NCBI GenBank assembly: GCA_051294905.1
Contig: CM119372.1
Span: forward strand, 5,148,001 to 5,208,000
Origin: Botryllus schlosseri
Lineage: Eukaryota
Direction of reading: 5' to 3'
Length of the DNA stretch: 60,000 bases
Shown here: positions 18,101 through 50,500 of the stretch, one piece after another
Position numbering within the stretch: the stretch's first letter is position 1
Layout of the letters: each line of letters starts with the position of its first letter
The notes under the pieces: generated by a model
What the model was told of the DNA's origin: nothing
The model's database searches: none
What the model saw: the letters and a program-made list of their open reading frames with translations, nothing else
Position numbers and translations under genes: made by a program

Positions 18101-21100
18101 ACTTTATGTTGAACGAAGCTTGCAGTTTTTCTGAACTTCGCCCTCCCTTGACTGAGTGTTTTTTCGTGTTTTTGTCATAAGACCGACTTTGGTGAAATTC
18201 TTAATCTCGGCGTCATGCTCGGAAAAAACTGAAAGGACGGGTTTACCTCTGACTCCAGTGTTCTAAATTCTAAACTTAAACCTTGTTTGAATTTCAGTTT
18301 CGGCTTTCTTTTTTGGGCATGACCGTTAATCGTTTGTGTGCTGATAGATATGATGAGTGATATAGTATTCGCAAGCACTGATTGACTTGTTTTACGAATC
18401 AGTGATTTGGAACATATCACGTAGCAAATTGAAACTCATATACCGTATAATGCGTTAGTTGACAATGGCAACTAGGAAGGTTTGAACTAAACTATATCAA
18501 AAAAGCGATTTCTTGTGTCTTCAATTGCTACTCATACTTTGCCACCTTGCCTTTATATTGAATCTGGACTACGCATGCGTAGGGAAGCGTTATCGTGGCA
18601 CATTATTGAACATGCTTCAAAGTAAACGAATTTCCTGTTCATTTGATATAGTCAGTTTTAGTCATTCAAAAAGCAAGTTTTATTTTTGAATTCCAAGCAA
18701 CCTTTCGCGGGCCGCACAGAATAGCTTCGCGGGCCGCACTTTGCCCAGGCCTGATATAAAGCTTTCTATTAGAATGATTATACCTTTGTTTTCGAGAACT
18801 ACAAAATACAACGTCACCGAATCGGGCTGTGTGCATTGGGCTTGGAATATGAGCCCTTTCCTAACAGGTGCAATAAGAACCTTGATTTGATCCCGAAAAT
18901 ATAGTGCATACAATTAAATTAGTCGAGTGGTCAACGGGCGCGATGCGTGAAATATTTCCAATAGTCAATTCCAAACCAGAAAAAATCGACTGGACTTGGA
19001 CCTCTACGGCTCTACCCCGCCGTCTTTAGTACAGTCCTTGAAATTTGGGGTGGGGGAGTGCAGACCATGCAAATTTCCAAAAGGGGCGCTGGGAGAAATA
19101 AAAGTTAAGAACCACTGATCTAGGCACATCCTGGCCATTGTAGCCATGGCCACAGTAGTCTCAAAACACCATGAATACAACAACCATTCAGTATAGTAAG
19201 GTGCGCGAAATGCTCATTTCTTTTTAGTTTATCACATACCCTGGATGGGACAAGAGTATGTTTCAAATCAACGATATAGCTCTGATAGAACTAGATAGCC
19301 CAGTCACTTTCAATGATTATATATCGCCAGTGTGTTTACCTAACGGAGAAACAGTTAAAACTGGAACAACGTGTTTCGCTGCTGGTTGGGGGATTACCGG
19401 TATGACAACATTGTTCCAAATGCGATCAAATAATTGTACCACATAACCATATCATTTTAGGTCAAGACGAAGTGCTGCCCTCCACAATGCAGCCATCCAC
19501 ATTTCTTCAGCATGAGAGTCTGCAAATTGTTGATCGGGAAAAATGTGAAGAGAGTTATAAAAACAACAGGTTAAGAGTTAATGAGACAATCATGGTCTGT
19601 GCGGGATACGACGAAGGTCACAAAGACGCCTGTTATAAAGGTGTGGTATGCACAATTGCACATGCGCATCAAATAGTCACTCATCAAAAAGAATCGTTCA
19701 CTAATTGCAGGAGACTCCGGCGGTCCCTTAGTTTGCCAACGCTGCGACAGTTGCGGTTGGTTTGTCGCGGGAGTCATTTCGTTCGGAGGTAGATGCGCAC
19801 AAACGGGGAAATACCGAGTGTACACTGATGTAATGTACTATGAAGATTGGATAGCGAGAGAAACCGGAATTCACTTATCGAAGACCAACACTTGTACAGG
19901 ACCACGTAAGTTTAATGGTTGTCAACTACGTAGTACATACCTATCATATACATACTCTTTCGTGGTAATGAATCCATGGGATGCATTCACAGAGCTCACG
20001 AATTGGAGTGAGTGGTCCCAGTGTCCGACAACGTGCGGATACAAAGCCATTAAGAAGAGAACAAGGCGATGCCTCCATAAGGGTCAAAATAGCTCTGGTT
20101 GCGTTGGAGTGTTAAAGGATCAAAAGCAATGCCCCAGAAAGCCATGTCCAAGTATGGTATTATGTATAATGGCGAGGAATAGCGTCATTATCACTATTGT
20201 CACCACGTGATATTCAGGACTCAGCTCGTGGAGTGTTTGGACGCCCTGCTCAAAAGAGTGTGGCTCAGGCATTCAAAGTAGAGTAAGAGAATGCTTTCAC
20301 GGAGAGCTTGGTCTCGAGGAGTGCCCAGTGTCAGGATCTTTTCAGATTACAGTAAGTTGATATGCGATGAGAGTCAATTGGATGATCCCTGTAATGCTAT
20401 GCGACAACGATCGCAGAACAATCATAGCAATGTTCTCATTCAGAAATGTAACACAATGCCATGTGCAAAATGGGGAAATTGGGACACCTGGGGCCAGTGC
20501 TCGCAAACTTGTGACAGTGGAAAAAGGAAGCGGTCACGTAGTTGCATGAATACATTACCAGGCCAGAATTGCCTTGGCAAGCCCGTGGAGGAAGAGTCTT
20601 GCAATACTGCAGCGTGCCCCAGTAAGGCTTTCGTAACATTCCACACATATCAATGCCAATCTACTATATACTACTGACGTGATATTGTAACACCTGCATT
20701 TATAAAGCCATGTAGTCGGTGGTACATGGTGCAGCCAGACTCACAAATCCAATTCGGCTAATCAGGGGTTCTCAAAGGGTGGGCCACAGGAGCATTTGAG
20801 GTGGGCCACAAAGCTATTTAGAAATTTTTTGAATTATTGTAAGTTCAGCGATATTTGTTATCTTAAACGCTAAAAATATATTCATAAAGCTTTTCACCCG
20901 ACTCTGATAAGACGCAGTGGCACATATGGAGTCAGAATGTACAACTAGAAAACGGGATGGGCAAACGGCGTCTTTTTCCACTGGTTATGAAAACCTACGG
21001 CTAACCCCATCAAAAATAATTTGGAGTATATAATAACTGGACGGTAATGCTGAAGTAACCAAGCACTCCGGTAGGATCATATGTCATATGCCGTTGAAAG

Positions 21101-41594: not shown

Positions 41595-44500
41595 ATGAAC
41601 ATACGTCTTGCGATCACAGGAGCAGTATTAGGGATTTTCCTATTAGGGGCCCACAGGATAACTGCAGGTAAATATACTGGTCTAAGAAATAAGGCTTGAC
41701 AGTTATTACGATATGAATACAGCCACACCAGCAGGACCATGTCCCGAAGAACAAGCTTTTTGTGCAACAGTCGTGGGAGTGTGCGATAGCGAAGAAACAA
41801 AGAAATTATGTCCGCTAACTTGCGACGCATGTTTGCCTTCGAGTAAGGTTCAACGAAAGATTTCCTACAAGTCGATGGTATTTTTAATGGCAATTTGTTT
41901 GAAAAATCCCAGTATGCCAAGACTGCCAGCAGAATTGTACTTTGTATGACGACGGGAAAGAGTACGCATGTACGTGCAACAAAGGATACAAACTTGACGA
42001 AGACGGCGTAAGCTGTTCAGGTTCTACTAATACCATGGTTTGTAACGGAATATTTCCCTAATTAACAGATGTTGATTTAGATATCAATGAATGCGCGGAA
42101 AGCCCGCATATCTGTGGGCAAGAGGACGTTTGTCAGAATCATGTAGGCAGTTTTGAATGTAAAGCCGACAAATGCAAAGTATATCACCACAAAAATTATG
42201 TAAGATCTTATTCCTATCCCGCCGAATGCTGCAAAATGTCGAAAGGTAAATAATAATGATTTTCTCGAAGAATGGTATCGTTCCAATCGAATAACTGCGT
42301 GTTTCTGCATCTACTAGGAAAGTGCGGACAAAATAATCAAAACAGAAACTCACGGGCACTGCGAATTTCCCACGGAGAGAGTGCTTCAGCTGGGATGTGG
42401 CCTTGGCATGTAGGTTCTTGTTCGTTTCGTGGTGTTGGCAGTAATCTTACGGTTAAGACTCAAGTGCACGATCTGCATTAAAGTGCATGGATTATATTAC
42501 TAACACAAATCGAGATGCTGTGGATGAAAAATGTTTCCTTCTATATGTCACCAACCTGGTAAAAATATTTTTTAAAAAGTGAAACAGCAATCACTACCTA
42601 CGATGTAAAATTACGAAGGAGGATTGAATGCGCGAGGATATGACATTATACCACATGTCACAAATATCTTTCTTAGAATGCGACATACTCAATGTACTCC
42701 ATTCATAACAGGGGCCGGTTAGTCATACCATGCGTTTTCTTATTCCTATACAGGCAATGATCATCATGAAAGATCAATTGTGTGGTGCAGCTCTAATAAG
42801 CGATAATTGGATTGTCACCGCAGCACAATGTTTCAGGTTGGTTATTTTGATTTAGGGAAAACTTGTGTTTAAAAATCATTTCCCTGTATCGCATAGGTCA
42901 ATTAGAAATGGAAGGCGCGTAAACGGCATCGAAGTGCTATTTGGCGTAGTTGATCGGAACCGACTGGATAGCCATACAAGTCAGGAGCGGCAAATTATTC
43001 AGGTGAGAAGCGTGTGTCATTATGTCGAGATGCAAGATTAGCGTTTAGTTGCGGGAATCCATGTCACCAAGAGCCATCTCCAGGTACGCAGTCGAGCATA
43101 ACATGTCCAGTCCACAGTGTTAGCGCAATTTAAATCAATATAATTTTATTGCAATTTAAATCAAAATAATTTTATTAAGGTCTTTAAGCATAGCAAGTTT
43201 AAATTTCCTCTGCACGACATCGCTGTCGCAAAGCTTGATCGCCCGATAAAAGAAAGTGAGTTCGTTAGACCAGTATGTCTTCCAAATGGAGAAATGCCCA
43301 AAGTCGGTACTCGCTGTTTCGCAACGGGCTTCGGAGTAACAGGTCAGCTCCTCCTTCTTATTATTTTAATTTGACTTTATAAATTTCAAAACGCTTCGCA
43401 GGACCGGGTGTGTTTAATCCGTCTGAAGAGCTCCAGCATGTTGACCTGCCAATAACTGACATCACGGCATGCAGAGAAGCGTACAAAGGCTCGCCGAACA
43501 AAGTTAACACGAGATCTATGATGTGCGCAGGAGGCGATAAAATAGGAAAAGATACATGCTTGGGTAAATGAGTGTCACCGTGTCAAAAATTACAAATTGC
43601 CTCTGCCTATTGTATTATTGTGACAATCGATAGCGATCGATCTACACCCGTCATAAGTGTCCAAACAAATGATCAAATTATGTCCATATCCCTAATTCTT
43701 GACATTCAAATTCATACTGATTTTTTATCATTCCTTTTTTTGTAGAAGAGTGATGGGATCTTTACCGTAACGTTATATTTTCTAAGAAAAGCTAAATTAT
43801 AGTCAAGACCGCAAGAAGAACTTTACATCGTTGTGTCACTTACGAACCCATATAGCATTTTCCACCGCGCCAAGAGGTCGGCATCTGCAGACTGAGATAC
43901 TAAGGCGGGGTGGGCAACCGGCGGCCGTAGAAGGATATTTGTGCGGCGGTAGATACGTGATTCAATTAGTATGTGTTGACGGCCGTCGACATGCAAATTG
44001 AATTTACGAATTGACTCCTGAATTTTTGATAGATTTATAATTATCTTAGAATTTTCTCCCATGTAGAAATACCAACTTGGAATCGTGTGCTCCTCATAAA
44101 ATTAAATTTGTTTCTGGCACGTTTGGTAGATTCCAATATCTTTTTCACAATACCGACAATCCTGATTGGAGGTCAAGAAATAACAGCATGCAACAAAGTG
44201 ACAACGATTGGCCCACCCGAAGATGCACCATCATTTATAAGTTGCCGAAAATTTCCGAAAACACTCCATCAATCAACTCTATACCGGTGAATCTGATTGA
44301 ATGGGCAGAGAAAGGATAAATATGTGACAGTAATATGTGAAACTACAGATATTAATGACGAAATGCATTCGTGAAGCTGAAAAATTTTTCGCGCTTCGCG
44401 AGATCATATAGCGGATCACGGTCACTATTCATAACATGAACATTGAACACTCGCAATTTCGGTGCGTATAGTTATCAGATATGAAAAGTAGGTTAGTCCG

Positions 44501-47500
44501 GGGTTCACAGAAAATGAGCATGGACAGTTTAACACAGTGGTTCTCAACCTTTTTGTCTTCGCGGACCCCTTTCGGACCGTGACGGACCCCCGCGGACCCC
44601 CACGACGTTTTAGATCAAATCTAGCTCAAATATCGTGCAATCGTCAACTGTCTCGTGCAAATGATAACTGTAGGCTTGGTGATGAACAGCAACAAAATGA
44701 GTCTTCTTGAGAATAAGATCATATGATCATACTATTCACGTAGAAATTGGGTTGACTATTATTTCAAAGCTTATTCTGCAACTGCATTTTTTGAAATAAG
44801 TGGTCGTGTCTTGAAAATCCGCCCCTTAGCTTTGATATGGACGAGTTGTGGTAGTGGTGTAGAATGCAATTATAACGCTTAACGCTTCCGACGACACATT
44901 CGGGGCATGATCGCAACAAACATGGCACCAAAATTGACAAACAAATTCATTTAATGAGGATATAACGTCACGCCTGGCCATCTAGCAGCTTATCATGAAG
45001 TTATTATGGAAGTAGTGGCTGTGTATATCACAGGAGAAAATGGATTTTTGTAAACATTTGAAAGTCACCGTGATTGACCTTACTCATCCAATATTCTTTC
45101 CCAATCCCCACCAAAACATCTCTAAACAGCAAAATGTTTGTATCAGTAGGTTATTGGCAATTTAGCAATTAAAATGATTCTGCACTGTAGGATATTTGAT
45201 CTCAAATGACTATTCCGTTGATCTGGGCACTGGAGTTTTACTAGTAATGAACCGAAACTGCCTCGTGATTTGCCGAATTTAAAAAAAATACAAATTAGGT
45301 TAATAAATATTTCGAGGCTTCGCGGACCCCCTGAAAATGCTTCGCGGACCCCCAGGGGTCCGCGGACCACCGGTTGAGAACCGCTGGTTTAACATTTGGC
45401 GTCCGTCTAGTTTAGTACGACTATGCCCTGGAATGCGGCCGTACTCTATAAATAAATAATCGAAATGCGGCCTTGAATAGCAAAAAGGTTGCCTTCCCCT
45501 GTACTAAGACATTCAAATTCGCTTTCTAATGTTCAAGGTGACAGTGGAGGGCCATTGGTGTGTCAGCGATGTGATAGCTGTGATTGGTATCTGGCTGGTA
45601 TCACTTCATTTGGGTCGAAATGCGGTTCATCAAATAGTAGGCCTGGAGTGTATACAGAGGTCGCATATTACGAAAACTGGATTGCGTTAAGGACAAAAGA
45701 AGTAAAGGCGAAAAAAGGTTCTTGCAGGCCAGTTCGTGAGTAGCCGCGAGACTTATAAATATATGGCTATATATCTAAGGATGAGTGATTCATTCAGAGT
45801 GGTCCCCATGGGGTGACTGGACAAATTGCGATACATCTTGCGGTGGAGGCACCAAAACTCGAATTAGAGTGTGCTCCGATAGAAGCGCGGTAGGACTTCC
45901 AGGCTGTCTTGGAAATTGGTTCGACAGCCAATCCTGCAACACGCAGCCATGTGGAGTAGGCCCGTGGTCTGAATGGTCGGATTGCTCGGAAACGTGCGGC
46001 GGGGGACAGCAAACGAGGGCAAGGAAATGTGACGCCATCAGATGCAGACAAATTACAACGGATAGTCGTGTGAATACATAAAATACATTGCATTAATCAC
46101 AGTTCTCGGTATTCAGCTCTGTCTAAAATGTACAGGTCTGTAATGAGCAGACGTGCCCACAATGGGGTCGGTGGTCACGTTGGACAGCGTGTTCTCGAAG
46201 CTGTGGAGGGGGCACAAGAAGTCGAAGTCGGTCTTGTGAAAACGAAATCAATGGCGTGTGTGGCGGGCCGCGGAGCGTCACTGAGAACTGCAATGAAGGT
46301 ATACCAAAGAGGTTTCATCTATCAATCAGAGATTAAAATTAGGCTGTATATATTTCAGATCCGTGTTCAAAGTGGGATAACTGGTCCAGGTGGACCGAGT
46401 GTAATGAAGTGTGTGGTGGAGGCATACAGATATCTAAGAGAGAGTGCGATGGGGGTGTATCTGCTGTGGACTGTAAAGGAAAGGCTGAACGATCACGGAA
46501 ATGTAACACACAGCCATGTAAGTTACAACGAGAAGATTTACGAGAAACACCTCGAAATCGTAACCATTGCTTTTAGGTACGTTTACCGACTGGAGTGACT
46601 GGACAGAGTGCTCAACGTCATGTGGACCTGGAATGCAAGAAAGGCAACGATCGTGCCGGAAAGGAACATGTAGACCGGACGACTTTGGATCGTTAAGAAG
46701 GGAAACTAAGAGTTGCAATCTCGTGGAGTGCACTGGGAGATGGTCTGAATGGGATTCATGGAGTCAATGTACAAAGTCCTGCGGCGGTGGAGTACAAACG
46801 AGATCAAGATCGTGCGAACGTGGACTAAGATGTTCAGAAGGCGTAGGAAACCAAGAGCGGGAATGCAGCATGAACGCATGCATTGGAGAATGGTCGAGCT
46901 GGTCACAATGGTCACCGTGTGACGCAACGTGCGATTCGGGGAGAGCTGTCAGAAGTAGAAATTGCGACGACGGGATAGATTGTCCCGGAAAATCACAACA
47001 GAGTAAGGAATGCATGTTGAAACCCTGTTCGAAGTGGTCGCCGTGGACGCAATGGTCCGAGTGCGACCGCTCGTGCGGCGACGCTAACAAAAAGCGGCAA
47101 AGATACTGCGAGCATGGAGATGAATGCAGAGGGGAAAAGGAACAGACAAAAGAATGTCTGTATAAAGAGTGTCCTACATGGTCAATGTGGACCGAATGGT
47201 CACCGTGCTTGGTTACGTGCGGCGGTGGACTGACTAAACGGGAAAGAACTTGCCTGAATGGTCCCGGGTGCGTCGGAGACAAAGAGGGTTTCGAAATATG
47301 CAACGAAAAGTCATGCGAAACGTGGTCTGTTTGGACTGAATGGTCACAATGTGACGCTACCTGTGGAAACGGAAATCGTGTAAGGACGAGATCATGCCAG
47401 AATGGAGAGAGTTGTGCTGGAGTTCCGAAACAGACAGAGGCATGTCAAATCACACGCTGCCCAACATGGTCCGATTGGTCTGACTGGTCCGCATGTTCGA

Positions 47501-50500
47501 AGACATGCGGTAAAGGGGAAAGATCTAGAAACAGGTATGTGCTACGCAGTGGTGGCTTTTGGGGTGGCCGAGGTGGGCGGAAGCCCGGGGCCCCCTGGTC
47601 GAAGGGCCCCCCTCTTTGGTTGTAGCGTTTATTTCACGGGTTGTAGCGAATAGACGTGGAAATCAAGAATATTGTTATTAAAGTCTCATATCACGACAAT
47701 CATGAAGTCTCTGCATGCCTGTTAAATTGGTAGGCTTTTTAGGGGGGTCTGGGGGGGCGGAGGCCCCCAGAAACTTCGATTACATACTTATAGGGCCCCC
47801 CGGATGTCTCGCCCAGCCCCCCCCCCAATCGTAGGGTCACCACTGGTGCTACGTTTTCTCTTGGAGAGTACAGTCCGGCTATGCTTACTGCTGTAGACCA
47901 TAAACCGTGAGATATATCAGTCATGGCCAGGCCGTGTTATTTTTGCCATGTGCCGAAAATAGCCAATTTTTGGCATTTGTCAGATTTTATTTTTGGCAGT
48001 TTAGGCATCGCCAGGAATTTGTATTTGTATACTCGAATTAACGAAGTGAAGCACTGTATAGTTTAATACTTCATACCAAACGAAAGTCACAAAACGTGCA
48101 GTATACACTTTGTGTCATCAAACAGCGACAATAAAAACCGGATTGACAACGGTGTTGGAGATTCAATTCACCAAATTCAAAAAACGACCGACTGCTTCTG
48201 CGCAATATCGAATCCGAATAGTCGATTCGATTTGCGTGCATAATTTCCTGCATTCACACAGATCACAATACCACTTATGATAACAATTCAAAATCACTGC
48301 TGACACATTTTAATCTCAGACCATCACTCGCCAACTGATGTTCCGAAATCACGAGTGGCTTCAATATTCAATATAATATGAAAAAATATCCAATGGGCTA
48401 ACAAAAAAAAACACTAAAGGGCCGAATATTTGCAAGCCTGTGTATGGTACGCTTTTTGACGCCGGAGGCACTTTGCACTGTATAAGTGGGTATGTTCAAC
48501 TGTTCATTGATGAAACTATATATATCCCTATTGTCCAACGGGACACAGTTTATCAGTGCACCGTATGCTGACATTTTCATTAACAAGTTGAAAGTAAATG
48601 GAATTATATATACGTATTCGGCTAAATGCAGCATGGGTCGCGCGTGTCGGCTACATGAGGTCACAAAGCTGTGACAACAGAAAATACCTCGTCGTTGAGC
48701 TATACACCCGATATTTTCATTCCTACAACACAGATCCCTTGGACGGTAGACCGTGGCCTTCAGAAGGAATCACGCCGTTAGCGGACCTCAATTTAGGAAT
48801 TTAGTAATACACACTCGTTTTGTCACTTCATGTAGACTCATTTCAATACTTGATGAAATTTCTATCTAAAACGTTTGTAAAAATCTATATTTTCAAAAAG
48901 CCTTATTTTTTTGGCTTTTGAATTTTTTTGGCAGTTTTGGAATCTGGTTCCCGAAATGCCAAAAATAACACGGCCTGGTCATGAGATTTTAGTTGGCTTT
49001 AACTGGTTCGAAAATCACGATTTGAACAGTCATCGAAAAATAATCTATGTAGGTACCGAAACTGTGTAGAATCGAAAAGTTAAGTGCTCAAAATATCTGT
49101 GACAGAACATAACTAATAACACCGAAAGGATATTATGAAACCATATCGCGGGATTTTTACAATGGGGAATTAAAGTATTATGGTGAATCCCGGATAATTT
49201 GATTACGAAATGTAGGCTATGCCTGGATAAATGAAATACAGACAATTTGCGTTTTATCTATCCATATGTCATTATACAGAACGTGCAACGTATTTCTTAA
49301 TGAGGATGCTAAATGCGTTGGAGACAACCAAGAAACGCAAGAATGCTCCACTGAAATTTGCCCAAGTAAGCGCATTTACGTTATCAAATTCGTCATTCGC
49401 ACGTCAACTACGACATGTTAAATACATAGGTCAATGCGACGAGCTCTGCGTAGAGCGAGTTAAGGTTGGAGCATGCAGAATATACAGAGACTGGATTTCT
49501 CGAATTTGCCATCCTGATTGTTGTGGTGAGAATTGCTCCAAGTTATTACATTGAAATAGATTTTCATGCCGTCACCACACTTGTATATCGCGCCAGCCAA
49601 TAGCATGAGTTATAAATAGACTTGAGTTCGATTGGAGATATGGATGGTAATTGTAACAACGAAAATAGCGACAGATGACGCGTATCAGTCAAGTCGATCG
49701 AATCATATTGATCGTATGTTACATTGTTGCAGGCTGCGACACGGAACTAACGAAAAATGACATGAATTTATGAATGCGTATTTAACAAAGTGTCAAATTT
49801 CTGTTACACTCAATGACTCGACTAGTTATGTGTTGTTTGTCGTATTTTTTGCGATTATACCCGATTGTGTCGTCGGAAGCGTAACACGTTATTATTACAT
49901 TCGCCACCACTTATCTTTGTGGAAATGGATTTTCGGCACTCGTTCATATCAAATCGAAGGCGCGGATTTTCAAGACACGACCACGTATTTCAAGAAATGC
50001 AGTTGCAGAATTCGCTTTGAAATGATAAAAGTCAACCCAATTTCCACATAAATAGTATGATGTTATTTTCGAGAAAAGTCAGTTTGTTTCTCTTTATCAC
50101 TATAGCCTACAGTTGCACAAGACGGGTGACGATTGAACGATAACACTGTGCTCCGTTTGAAAAGTATTTCTCAAAGGTCAAATACGTTTTAACTGTTTTC
50201 GAATCAATTTTTTGCGCTGAACTCAAAAATGCAAACAGTTTTTTTCAATCAGGTCAAGTTTTTTCTTCATCACATATTCAATTATGCTAGCTTTGGTCAT
50301 TATTGTACATGTACAAAAATAAATTAGGTTCTGCGGTAGCTTAATTGGTTATGCATGTTGTAAATTTTTGCAAGATGGTATTTTTATTTGAATTTAAGGT
50401 ATTTGCCATGACAGCCGTTTTAGATACTACTAAAATATAATAACACAGTTTAAATAAAGGCACTTACAACCAACCAAGCATAATTTTGTTCAATGGCGCT

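Follow-up and report, generated by a model that had tools for sequence, protein, structure and literature searches.

A probable pseudo-protease with Gln at position 57 in a tandem trypsin-TSP1 gene cluster of Botryllus schlosseri

Serine protease homologs with a changed His57

His57 is the general base of trypsin-like serine proteases, and its loss lowers activity by several orders of magnitude. HGF has a Tyr at position 195 and carries kringle and PAN domains. The replacement of His57 by Gln is itself well known and is one of the usual ways in which serine protease homologs arise. In Tenebrio molitor, Gln is described as the commonest replacement at His57, occurring in 55 of 125 homologs; a sentence about position 57 in the same paper prints ‘H195Q’ (PMC11172050). 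HGF has Gln534 and Asp578 at positions 57 and 102, and its binding to MET depends on the Val495-Asp672 bridge (PMC11399343, PMC13194640). Among viper venom serine protease homologs, His57 is reported as the most often changed triad residue, with Arg in 13, Asn in 2 and Gln in 1 (PMC3123349). For the ascidian ShK-EGF-trypsin-TSP1 family studied here, no published description or function was found in our search, and supplementary gene lists may name members. Botryllus allorejection libraries are rich in trypsin-family proteases, and the family is not described in the accessible text of that report (PMC2527998); the accessible part of PMC3390340 deals with other proteins.

Gene D, the fourth of five tandem paralogs (A to E), lies in the 60,000-nucleotide stretch of Botryllus schlosseri DNA analyzed here (the window) and has Gln at position 57. 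It is like SerPH562 of T. molitor, a homolog with a Q-D-S triad, in its trypsin fold, predicted secretion, Gln57 and retained Asp102 and Ser195 (PMC11172050). However, gene D encodes a 1,014-residue EGF/TSP1 mosaic with a single lesion and has an intact-looking probable ortholog, and its pocket residues 189, 216 and 226 are Asp, Gly and Gly, compared with Gly, Ile and Ser in SerPH562 (PMC11172050). The HGF beta chain shares with gene D Gln57, Asp102 and, as predicted for gene D, the activation cleavage and the bridge between residue 16 and Asp194 (PMC11399343, PMC13194640). Unlike HGF, gene D has kept Ser195 and has EGF and TSP1 arms; no kringle or PAN domain was found in the scanned gene D exons, where EGF and TSP1 were, or in its likely Styela ortholog P0026, which was scanned whole. 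Since Ser195 is kept and kringles are absent, we place gene D outside the HGF family; by analogy, it may resemble HGF beta in how it works, through a retained cleavage switch. The viper homologs resemble gene D in that His57 is the residue changed, and in them such changes arose several times within a family of active paralogs; they are single-domain venom proteins from an unrelated context (PMC3123349).

The gene D model and its protease domain

The predicted gene model and the residues used below are as follows (positions in the window).

41595..49773, + strand: gene D, predicted model with 17 exons, CDS of 3,045 nt, 1,014 aa
41595..41667, + strand: exon 1, ATG and a hydrophobic, signal-peptide-like segment (judged by eye)
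41723..41842, + strand: exon 2, six-Cys ShK-like module (weak label)
41913..42245, + strand: exons 3-4, EGF-like and calcium-binding EGF modules (Pfam cEGF/FXa_inhibition E 3e-7, EGF_CA E 2e-7)
42318..42409, + strand: exon 5, linker Cys and activation site Arg15 (42362-42364) / Ile16 (42365-42367), Ser17, His18
42754..42836, + strand: exon 6, Cys42, Ala44, Gln57, Cys58 (Pfam Trypsin E 2.6e-6, profile positions 21-44)
42826..42828, + strand: codon CAA in exon 6, Gln at the His57 position (TAAQC)
42897..43002, + strand: exon 7, protease-domain loops, 60s-80s
43180..43342, + strand: exon 8, Asp102 (43216-43218) in HDIAV (Pfam Trypsin E 1e-8)
43402..43563, + strand: exon 9, Asp189 (43551-43553), Thr190, Cys191, Leu192
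45538..45735, + strand: exon 10, Gly193, Asp194, Ser195, CxRCxxCxW insert, Ser214, Gly216, Cys220, Gly226 (Pfam Trypsin E 2e-11)
45798..49365, + strand: exons 11-15, TSP1 array with 11 WxxWxxC motifs (predicted exons)
49430..49773, + strand: exons 16-17, short Cys-rich tail and stop (predicted exons)

The reading frame is without a stop over all 17 exons, and the introns are GT..AG in 16 of 16 cases. The encoded domains are, in order, a signal peptide, an ShK-like module, EGF, EGF_CA, the trypsin domain, about 11 TSP1 repeats and the Cys-rich tail, with the TSP1 and tail portion accounting for about 590 of the 1,014 residues. Pfam Trypsin (PF00089) scored above the cut-off in all four protease exons scanned (exons 5 and 7 were outside the scan), and exon 14 alone matched Pfam TSP_1 in 7 stretches with E 1.6e-59. 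Exon 2 alone had no Pfam match, and the equivalent module of the paralog-family protein P0095 matched ShK with E 8e-4, just under the cut-off. A 299-bp element at 47547-47845 (within 47539-47853), which ends in 8-bp terminal inverted repeats and has a target duplication of 8 bp, was judged hAT-like by eye; it lies 4 bases past the splice donor of exon 14, which appears intact.

Gene D is transcribed and spliced. None of the matching runs was listed as RNA; X8, X12 and X13 were taken as RNA runs by guess, and the GT..AG joints in them show splicing. Joints for introns 1-8 were found in X8, with that of intron 2 in two forms and that between exons 1 and 2 at 41664-41720, and five of these eight introns were also joined in X13. 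Loose ends of contigs from both X8 and X13 run from exon 9 into exon 10, and two raw reads of X23 cross intron 3. In X12, one contig of 3,394 nt agrees with the predicted mRNA length (145 + 3,045 + 204). Few raw reads matched: 13 in one set of 12.9 million records and 4 in another of 22.2 million.

The initial annotation had read codon 42826-42828 as CAA (TAAQC) in gene D where genes B and C have AAHC, and had described Asp102 (HDIAV), Asp189 and Ser195 (GDSGGP) as kept in an open multi-exon frame; both observations were confirmed in the sequence. Gene A, just upstream of the window, also reads AAHC. The interval 42754-42836 is exactly exon 6, with AG and GT at its ends, and the GDSGGP of exon 10 has Asp194 at 45540-45542 and Ser195 at 45543-45545. 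CAA was present in all four sequencing runs matched to exon 6, which come from four studies, in Logan contigs that drop rare variants and would let a rare His allele escape detection. In a narrow match of exon 6, the spliced contigs of X8, X12 and X14 had no differing letters over 42754-42838; position 42828 was read from this match because differences near piece ends go unlisted in the wider one. Run X12 is filed under another organism label; its exon match is exact, and it was not counted as a distant species. The genomic contig of X5 spans 42723-42874 with two differing letters: a silent change at 42804 and a second, unlisted one that, under the listing rule, should sit near an end of that span. 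Since the X5 allele diverges from the assembly just downstream of exon 6, CAA is common to distinct haplotypes. No second genomic copy with His was found, and the 1.3-kb region matches the 495.5-Mb assembly once.

An assembly error or a rare allele, which the initial annotation had named as a possible refutation, or a correction by RNA editing is a negligible prospect for a codon one base away from CAC and CAT: CAA in four of four runs, including three spliced contigs and a divergent allele, speaks strongly against it, the region is single-copy in the assembly, and A-to-I editing of CAA cannot yield a His codon. The His57Gln change in gene D is real.

The remainder of the protease domain was compared with relatives at the 46 columns that are invariant in 16 relatives with an intact triad. 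Gene D differs at three of them, Gly18His (polymorphic), Gly44Ala and His57Gln. For the intact-triad members, leave-one-out counts give 0-4 differing columns, and each of two old homologs differs at 11. With three departures, one of them in the triad, gene D has a nearly intact domain with one catalytic lesion. It keeps Arg15, Ile16, Gly19, Cys42, Cys58, Asp102, Asp189, Cys191, Gly193, Asp194 and Ser195, and likewise Ser214, Gly216, Cys220 and Gly226, so that the trypsin pocket of Asp189, Gly216 and Gly226 is complete. At position 192 gene D has Leu, whereas Gln, Arg or Lys is found in each of the 16 intact relatives. Gene D thus has the trypsin domain, Asp102, Ser195, the activation switch and the pocket of an active S1A peptidase, and lacks His57; by its triad substitution it is an S1 serine protease homolog as defined in PMC11172050.

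The N-terminus R|ISHG, encoded at 42362-42376, had been put forward as a further departure from the canonical form. The motif is present, with an unusual Ser at position 17 and with His or Gly at position 18 by allele (the X13 allele changes His18 to Gly, giving R|ISGG). However, it carries little weight as an additional sign of inactivity, because Ile16 and Asp194 are both present, Arg15 and Gly19 are kept and His18 is allelic; the activation switch requires Ile or Val at position 16 and Asp194 (PMC13194640).

Among His-exon matches in this genome, 27 of 29 had His, one had Gln (gene D) and one had Ser, in a sample biased by a query that favors His-bearing motifs (42 matches found, 30 fetched, 29 parsed). 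Loss of His57 is uncommon in this His-favoring sample. A trypsin-like exon other than that of gene D has Ser at the His57 position (L055, G000:C2:7826886-7826942, minus strand). At L013 / L035 (G000:C1:30287859-30288044) His57 is kept and Asn is found at Asp194, a possible zymogen-locked homolog.

Relatives, selection and the age of the change

The nearest named relatives of gene D come from Styela clava, Ciona, Clavelina and Phallusia, with Styela closest. The Styela clava protein XP_039268384 (P0026, ‘hemicentin-1-like’/uncharacterized) was the top match among 17 relatives for all four gene D segments searched (N-terminal, protease, TSP1 and tail). It has RIIGG and an intact His-Asp-Ser triad, and it is 46% identical to gene D in the protease domain. 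P0026 and the Ciona, Phallusia and Clavelina members have the same domain order and the same CxRCxxCxW insert as gene D, although Pfam finds 8 TSP1 stretches in P0026 compared with about 11 motifs in gene D. By its domain order and the CxRCxxCxW after GDSGGP, gene D belongs to this family, for which the label ascidian ShK-EGF-EGF-trypsin-TSP1 mosaic is our own coinage. Styela genes matching A/B, D and E are on contigs that all have the length 25,587,678, probably one contig.

Trees grouped gene D with P0026 and the pair gene C/P0095, leaving the internal order open (support 94/95 and 86/94, neither starred), and a clade of D and P0026 was neither recovered nor rejected (p-AU 0.42). End branches were 0.90 for gene D, 0.44 for P0026 and 0.35 for gene C. 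The closest relative found is a fragment, P0020, which is 74% identical in exon 10 and 55% in exon 11 and is without the His exon. P0020 has Ser226, which weakens the claim of a conserved Arg/Lys pocket and leaves binding of Arg/Lys substrates, proposed in the initial annotation, as a possibility, and together with Leu192 in gene D it suggests that the gene D pocket may be drifting.

Closer orthologs were sought by four routes, whose blanks are weak because entries from this genome or from close ones may be missing. Exon 8 compared with longer proteins gave no ortholog with a His exon among 3 candidates; for the long TSP1 exon, none of the best 120 of 348 matches exceeded 41% identity; and proteins of 26-84 aa yielded no candidate for a 48-aa frame that includes exon 6. 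Metagenome contigs contained 80 loci with a best identity of 65%; 10 were examined, and the five that were ascidian-like are distant paralogs, with His57 in 4 of 4 where the His exon was seen.

His57 is kept in all 18 other family members aligned. As these include the likely Styela ortholog, the loss seems lineage-specific. The simplest reading is that the gene D line lost His57 after separating from Styela and that its variable sites changed faster. The retention of Ser195 and the pocket might simply mean that little time has passed since that loss.

Selection on gene D was examined through variants within the species. The 18 exonic variants comprise 12 silent and 6 replacement changes over 240.5 silent and 830.5 replacement sites (binomial p 7.6e-5), in a partial list from which differences near piece ends and 5 rows are hidden. 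The resulting pN/pS, computed by hand, is about 0.14 overall and 0.13 for residues 171-357 (9 silent, 4 replacement). Five of the 18 variants were taken from joint or loose-end strings, and most of the 18 were each seen in a single contig; they are phased with CAA in X5, X8 and X12 only. No stop or frameshift was found in the 17-exon model or among the listed exonic variants. The excess of silent variants points to purifying selection, in line with the initial annotation, which had called the gene maintained and named dN/dS as a gauge; the spliced contigs agree. Gene D looks maintained, on variant evidence that is good and not final. In intron 5 (42410-42753), one X13 contig had 23 substitutions and 6 gap letters in 301 bases, a high allelic divergence.

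The neighboring paralogs differ in state. Judged by their sequences, genes A and C look active. Gene B (19461-19905) has an intact triad with Gly226 changed to Arg. In its model, Cys191 and Gly193 have an extra residue between them and five residues are inserted ahead of the Gln156 region; its end branch is 0.14, compared with 0.025 for its twin A, and it may be inactive or decaying. The fifth paralog lies beyond the window.

L025:3365-9600 (G000:C2), about 3-10 kb past the window end: gene E, His57 kept; Asn102, Ser194, Thr195; no Arg-Ile activation site

The Styela counterpart of gene E, P0246, keeps His-Asp-Ser and lacks the activation site and Asp194. Gene E looks like an older, zymogen-locked pseudo-protease. 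Since E and P0246 are both without the activation site, pseudo-proteases would be old in the cluster and gene D a second, younger case. Trans-complementation between D, which lacks His57, and E, which lacks Asp102 and Ser195, was considered and rejected as geometrically implausible.

Possible roles of the gene D product

The product of gene D is very probably a pseudo-protease. This reading, which the initial annotation had called probable, fits best, as the change is real, occurs in all data sets checked and lies in a transcribed, spliced gene that looks maintained. For its role, we favor with moderate confidence a secreted pseudo-protease that would be switched by cleavage and would bind partners instead of cutting them. 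The precursor would be secreted and then cleaved behind Arg15 by a trypsin-like enzyme, with the products of the neighbors A or C as candidates. A bridge from the new Ile16 to Asp194 would give the pocket the ordered form it has in active proteases. Attack by Ser195, lacking the general base, would be inefficient, and catalysis would be negligible. The ordered cleft could thus serve as a cleavage-dependent binding site, acting as a decoy for inhibitors or substrates or as a cofactor, and the TSP1 array would hold the protein on matrix or cell surfaces.

Selection could also be directed at the fold and at the TSP1/EGF arms, with the cleft idle. The gene D product would then be a structural or adhesive matrix protein working through its EGF and TSP1 arms, the protease domain being a folded spacer with catalytic residues that have not yet decayed. 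The large share of TSP1 and tail residues is consistent with this, as are the long gene D branch, Ser226 in P0020, and Ser17, Leu192 and the polymorphic position 18 in gene D; gene E also shows that the family tolerates a complete loss of the switch. However, although its branch is about twice that of P0026, gene D retains 43 of the 46 invariant columns, among them the non-structural Arg15, Asp189, Asp194 and Ser195. We therefore regard a mere spacer as unlikely, although it deserves serious consideration.

Much less probable is a weak or highly selective enzyme, which would cut slowly, form a long-lived acyl complex or use a His supplied by the substrate. Ser195, Asp102, Gly193 and the S1 residues are all intact, and a Tenebrio homolog with a Ser-to-Thr change in its triad is described as having low but detectable activity (PMC11172050). 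Yet His101 of gene D is no substitute, since relatives with an intact triad have His101 too, and Gln would occupy the space that a substrate His would need. The size of the effect expected from losing the general base also argues against residual cutting. No literature on H57A and substrate-assisted catalysis in trypsin was found in our search.

It is equally hard to regard gene D as a redundant gene that was disabled recently and is turning into a pseudogene, and we consider this improbable. The single base that separates CAA from His, the tandem array with its active-looking A and C, the apparent decay of B and the low raw-read counts would all fit such a gene. Against this, CAA is common to divergent alleles, silent variants outnumber replacements 12:6, the model and the listed variants are free of stops and frameshifts, and the X12 contig fits the full mRNA length.

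Beyond the favored cleavage-switched binding protein, a bolder proposal is that the gene D product, once cleaved, is a covalent trap that acts slowly, or a protease that cuts a single His-bearing target with substrate assistance, and so regulates the active enzymes of its own five-gene cluster. On this proposal Ser195, Asp102, the oxyanion hole and the Arg pocket would be kept because they are still used. We hold it to be a long shot.

The substitution is ordinary in itself, and its value is that of a clean test case. A domain with a single lesion and a probable Styela ortholog that looks fully active form a natural before/after pair for the origin of a pseudo-enzyme. The five-gene cluster adds a graded series, in which A and C are intact, B is likely decaying, D is without His57 and E is without Asp102, Ser195 and the activation site. 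In the whole genome, exon 10 had 104 matches, and the His motif was found in 12 of 14 fetched stretches, with His in all 12. More tandem trypsin clusters with the CxRCxxCxW insert were seen at G000:C9 (16.9 and 23.0-23.3 Mb), C12 and C4.
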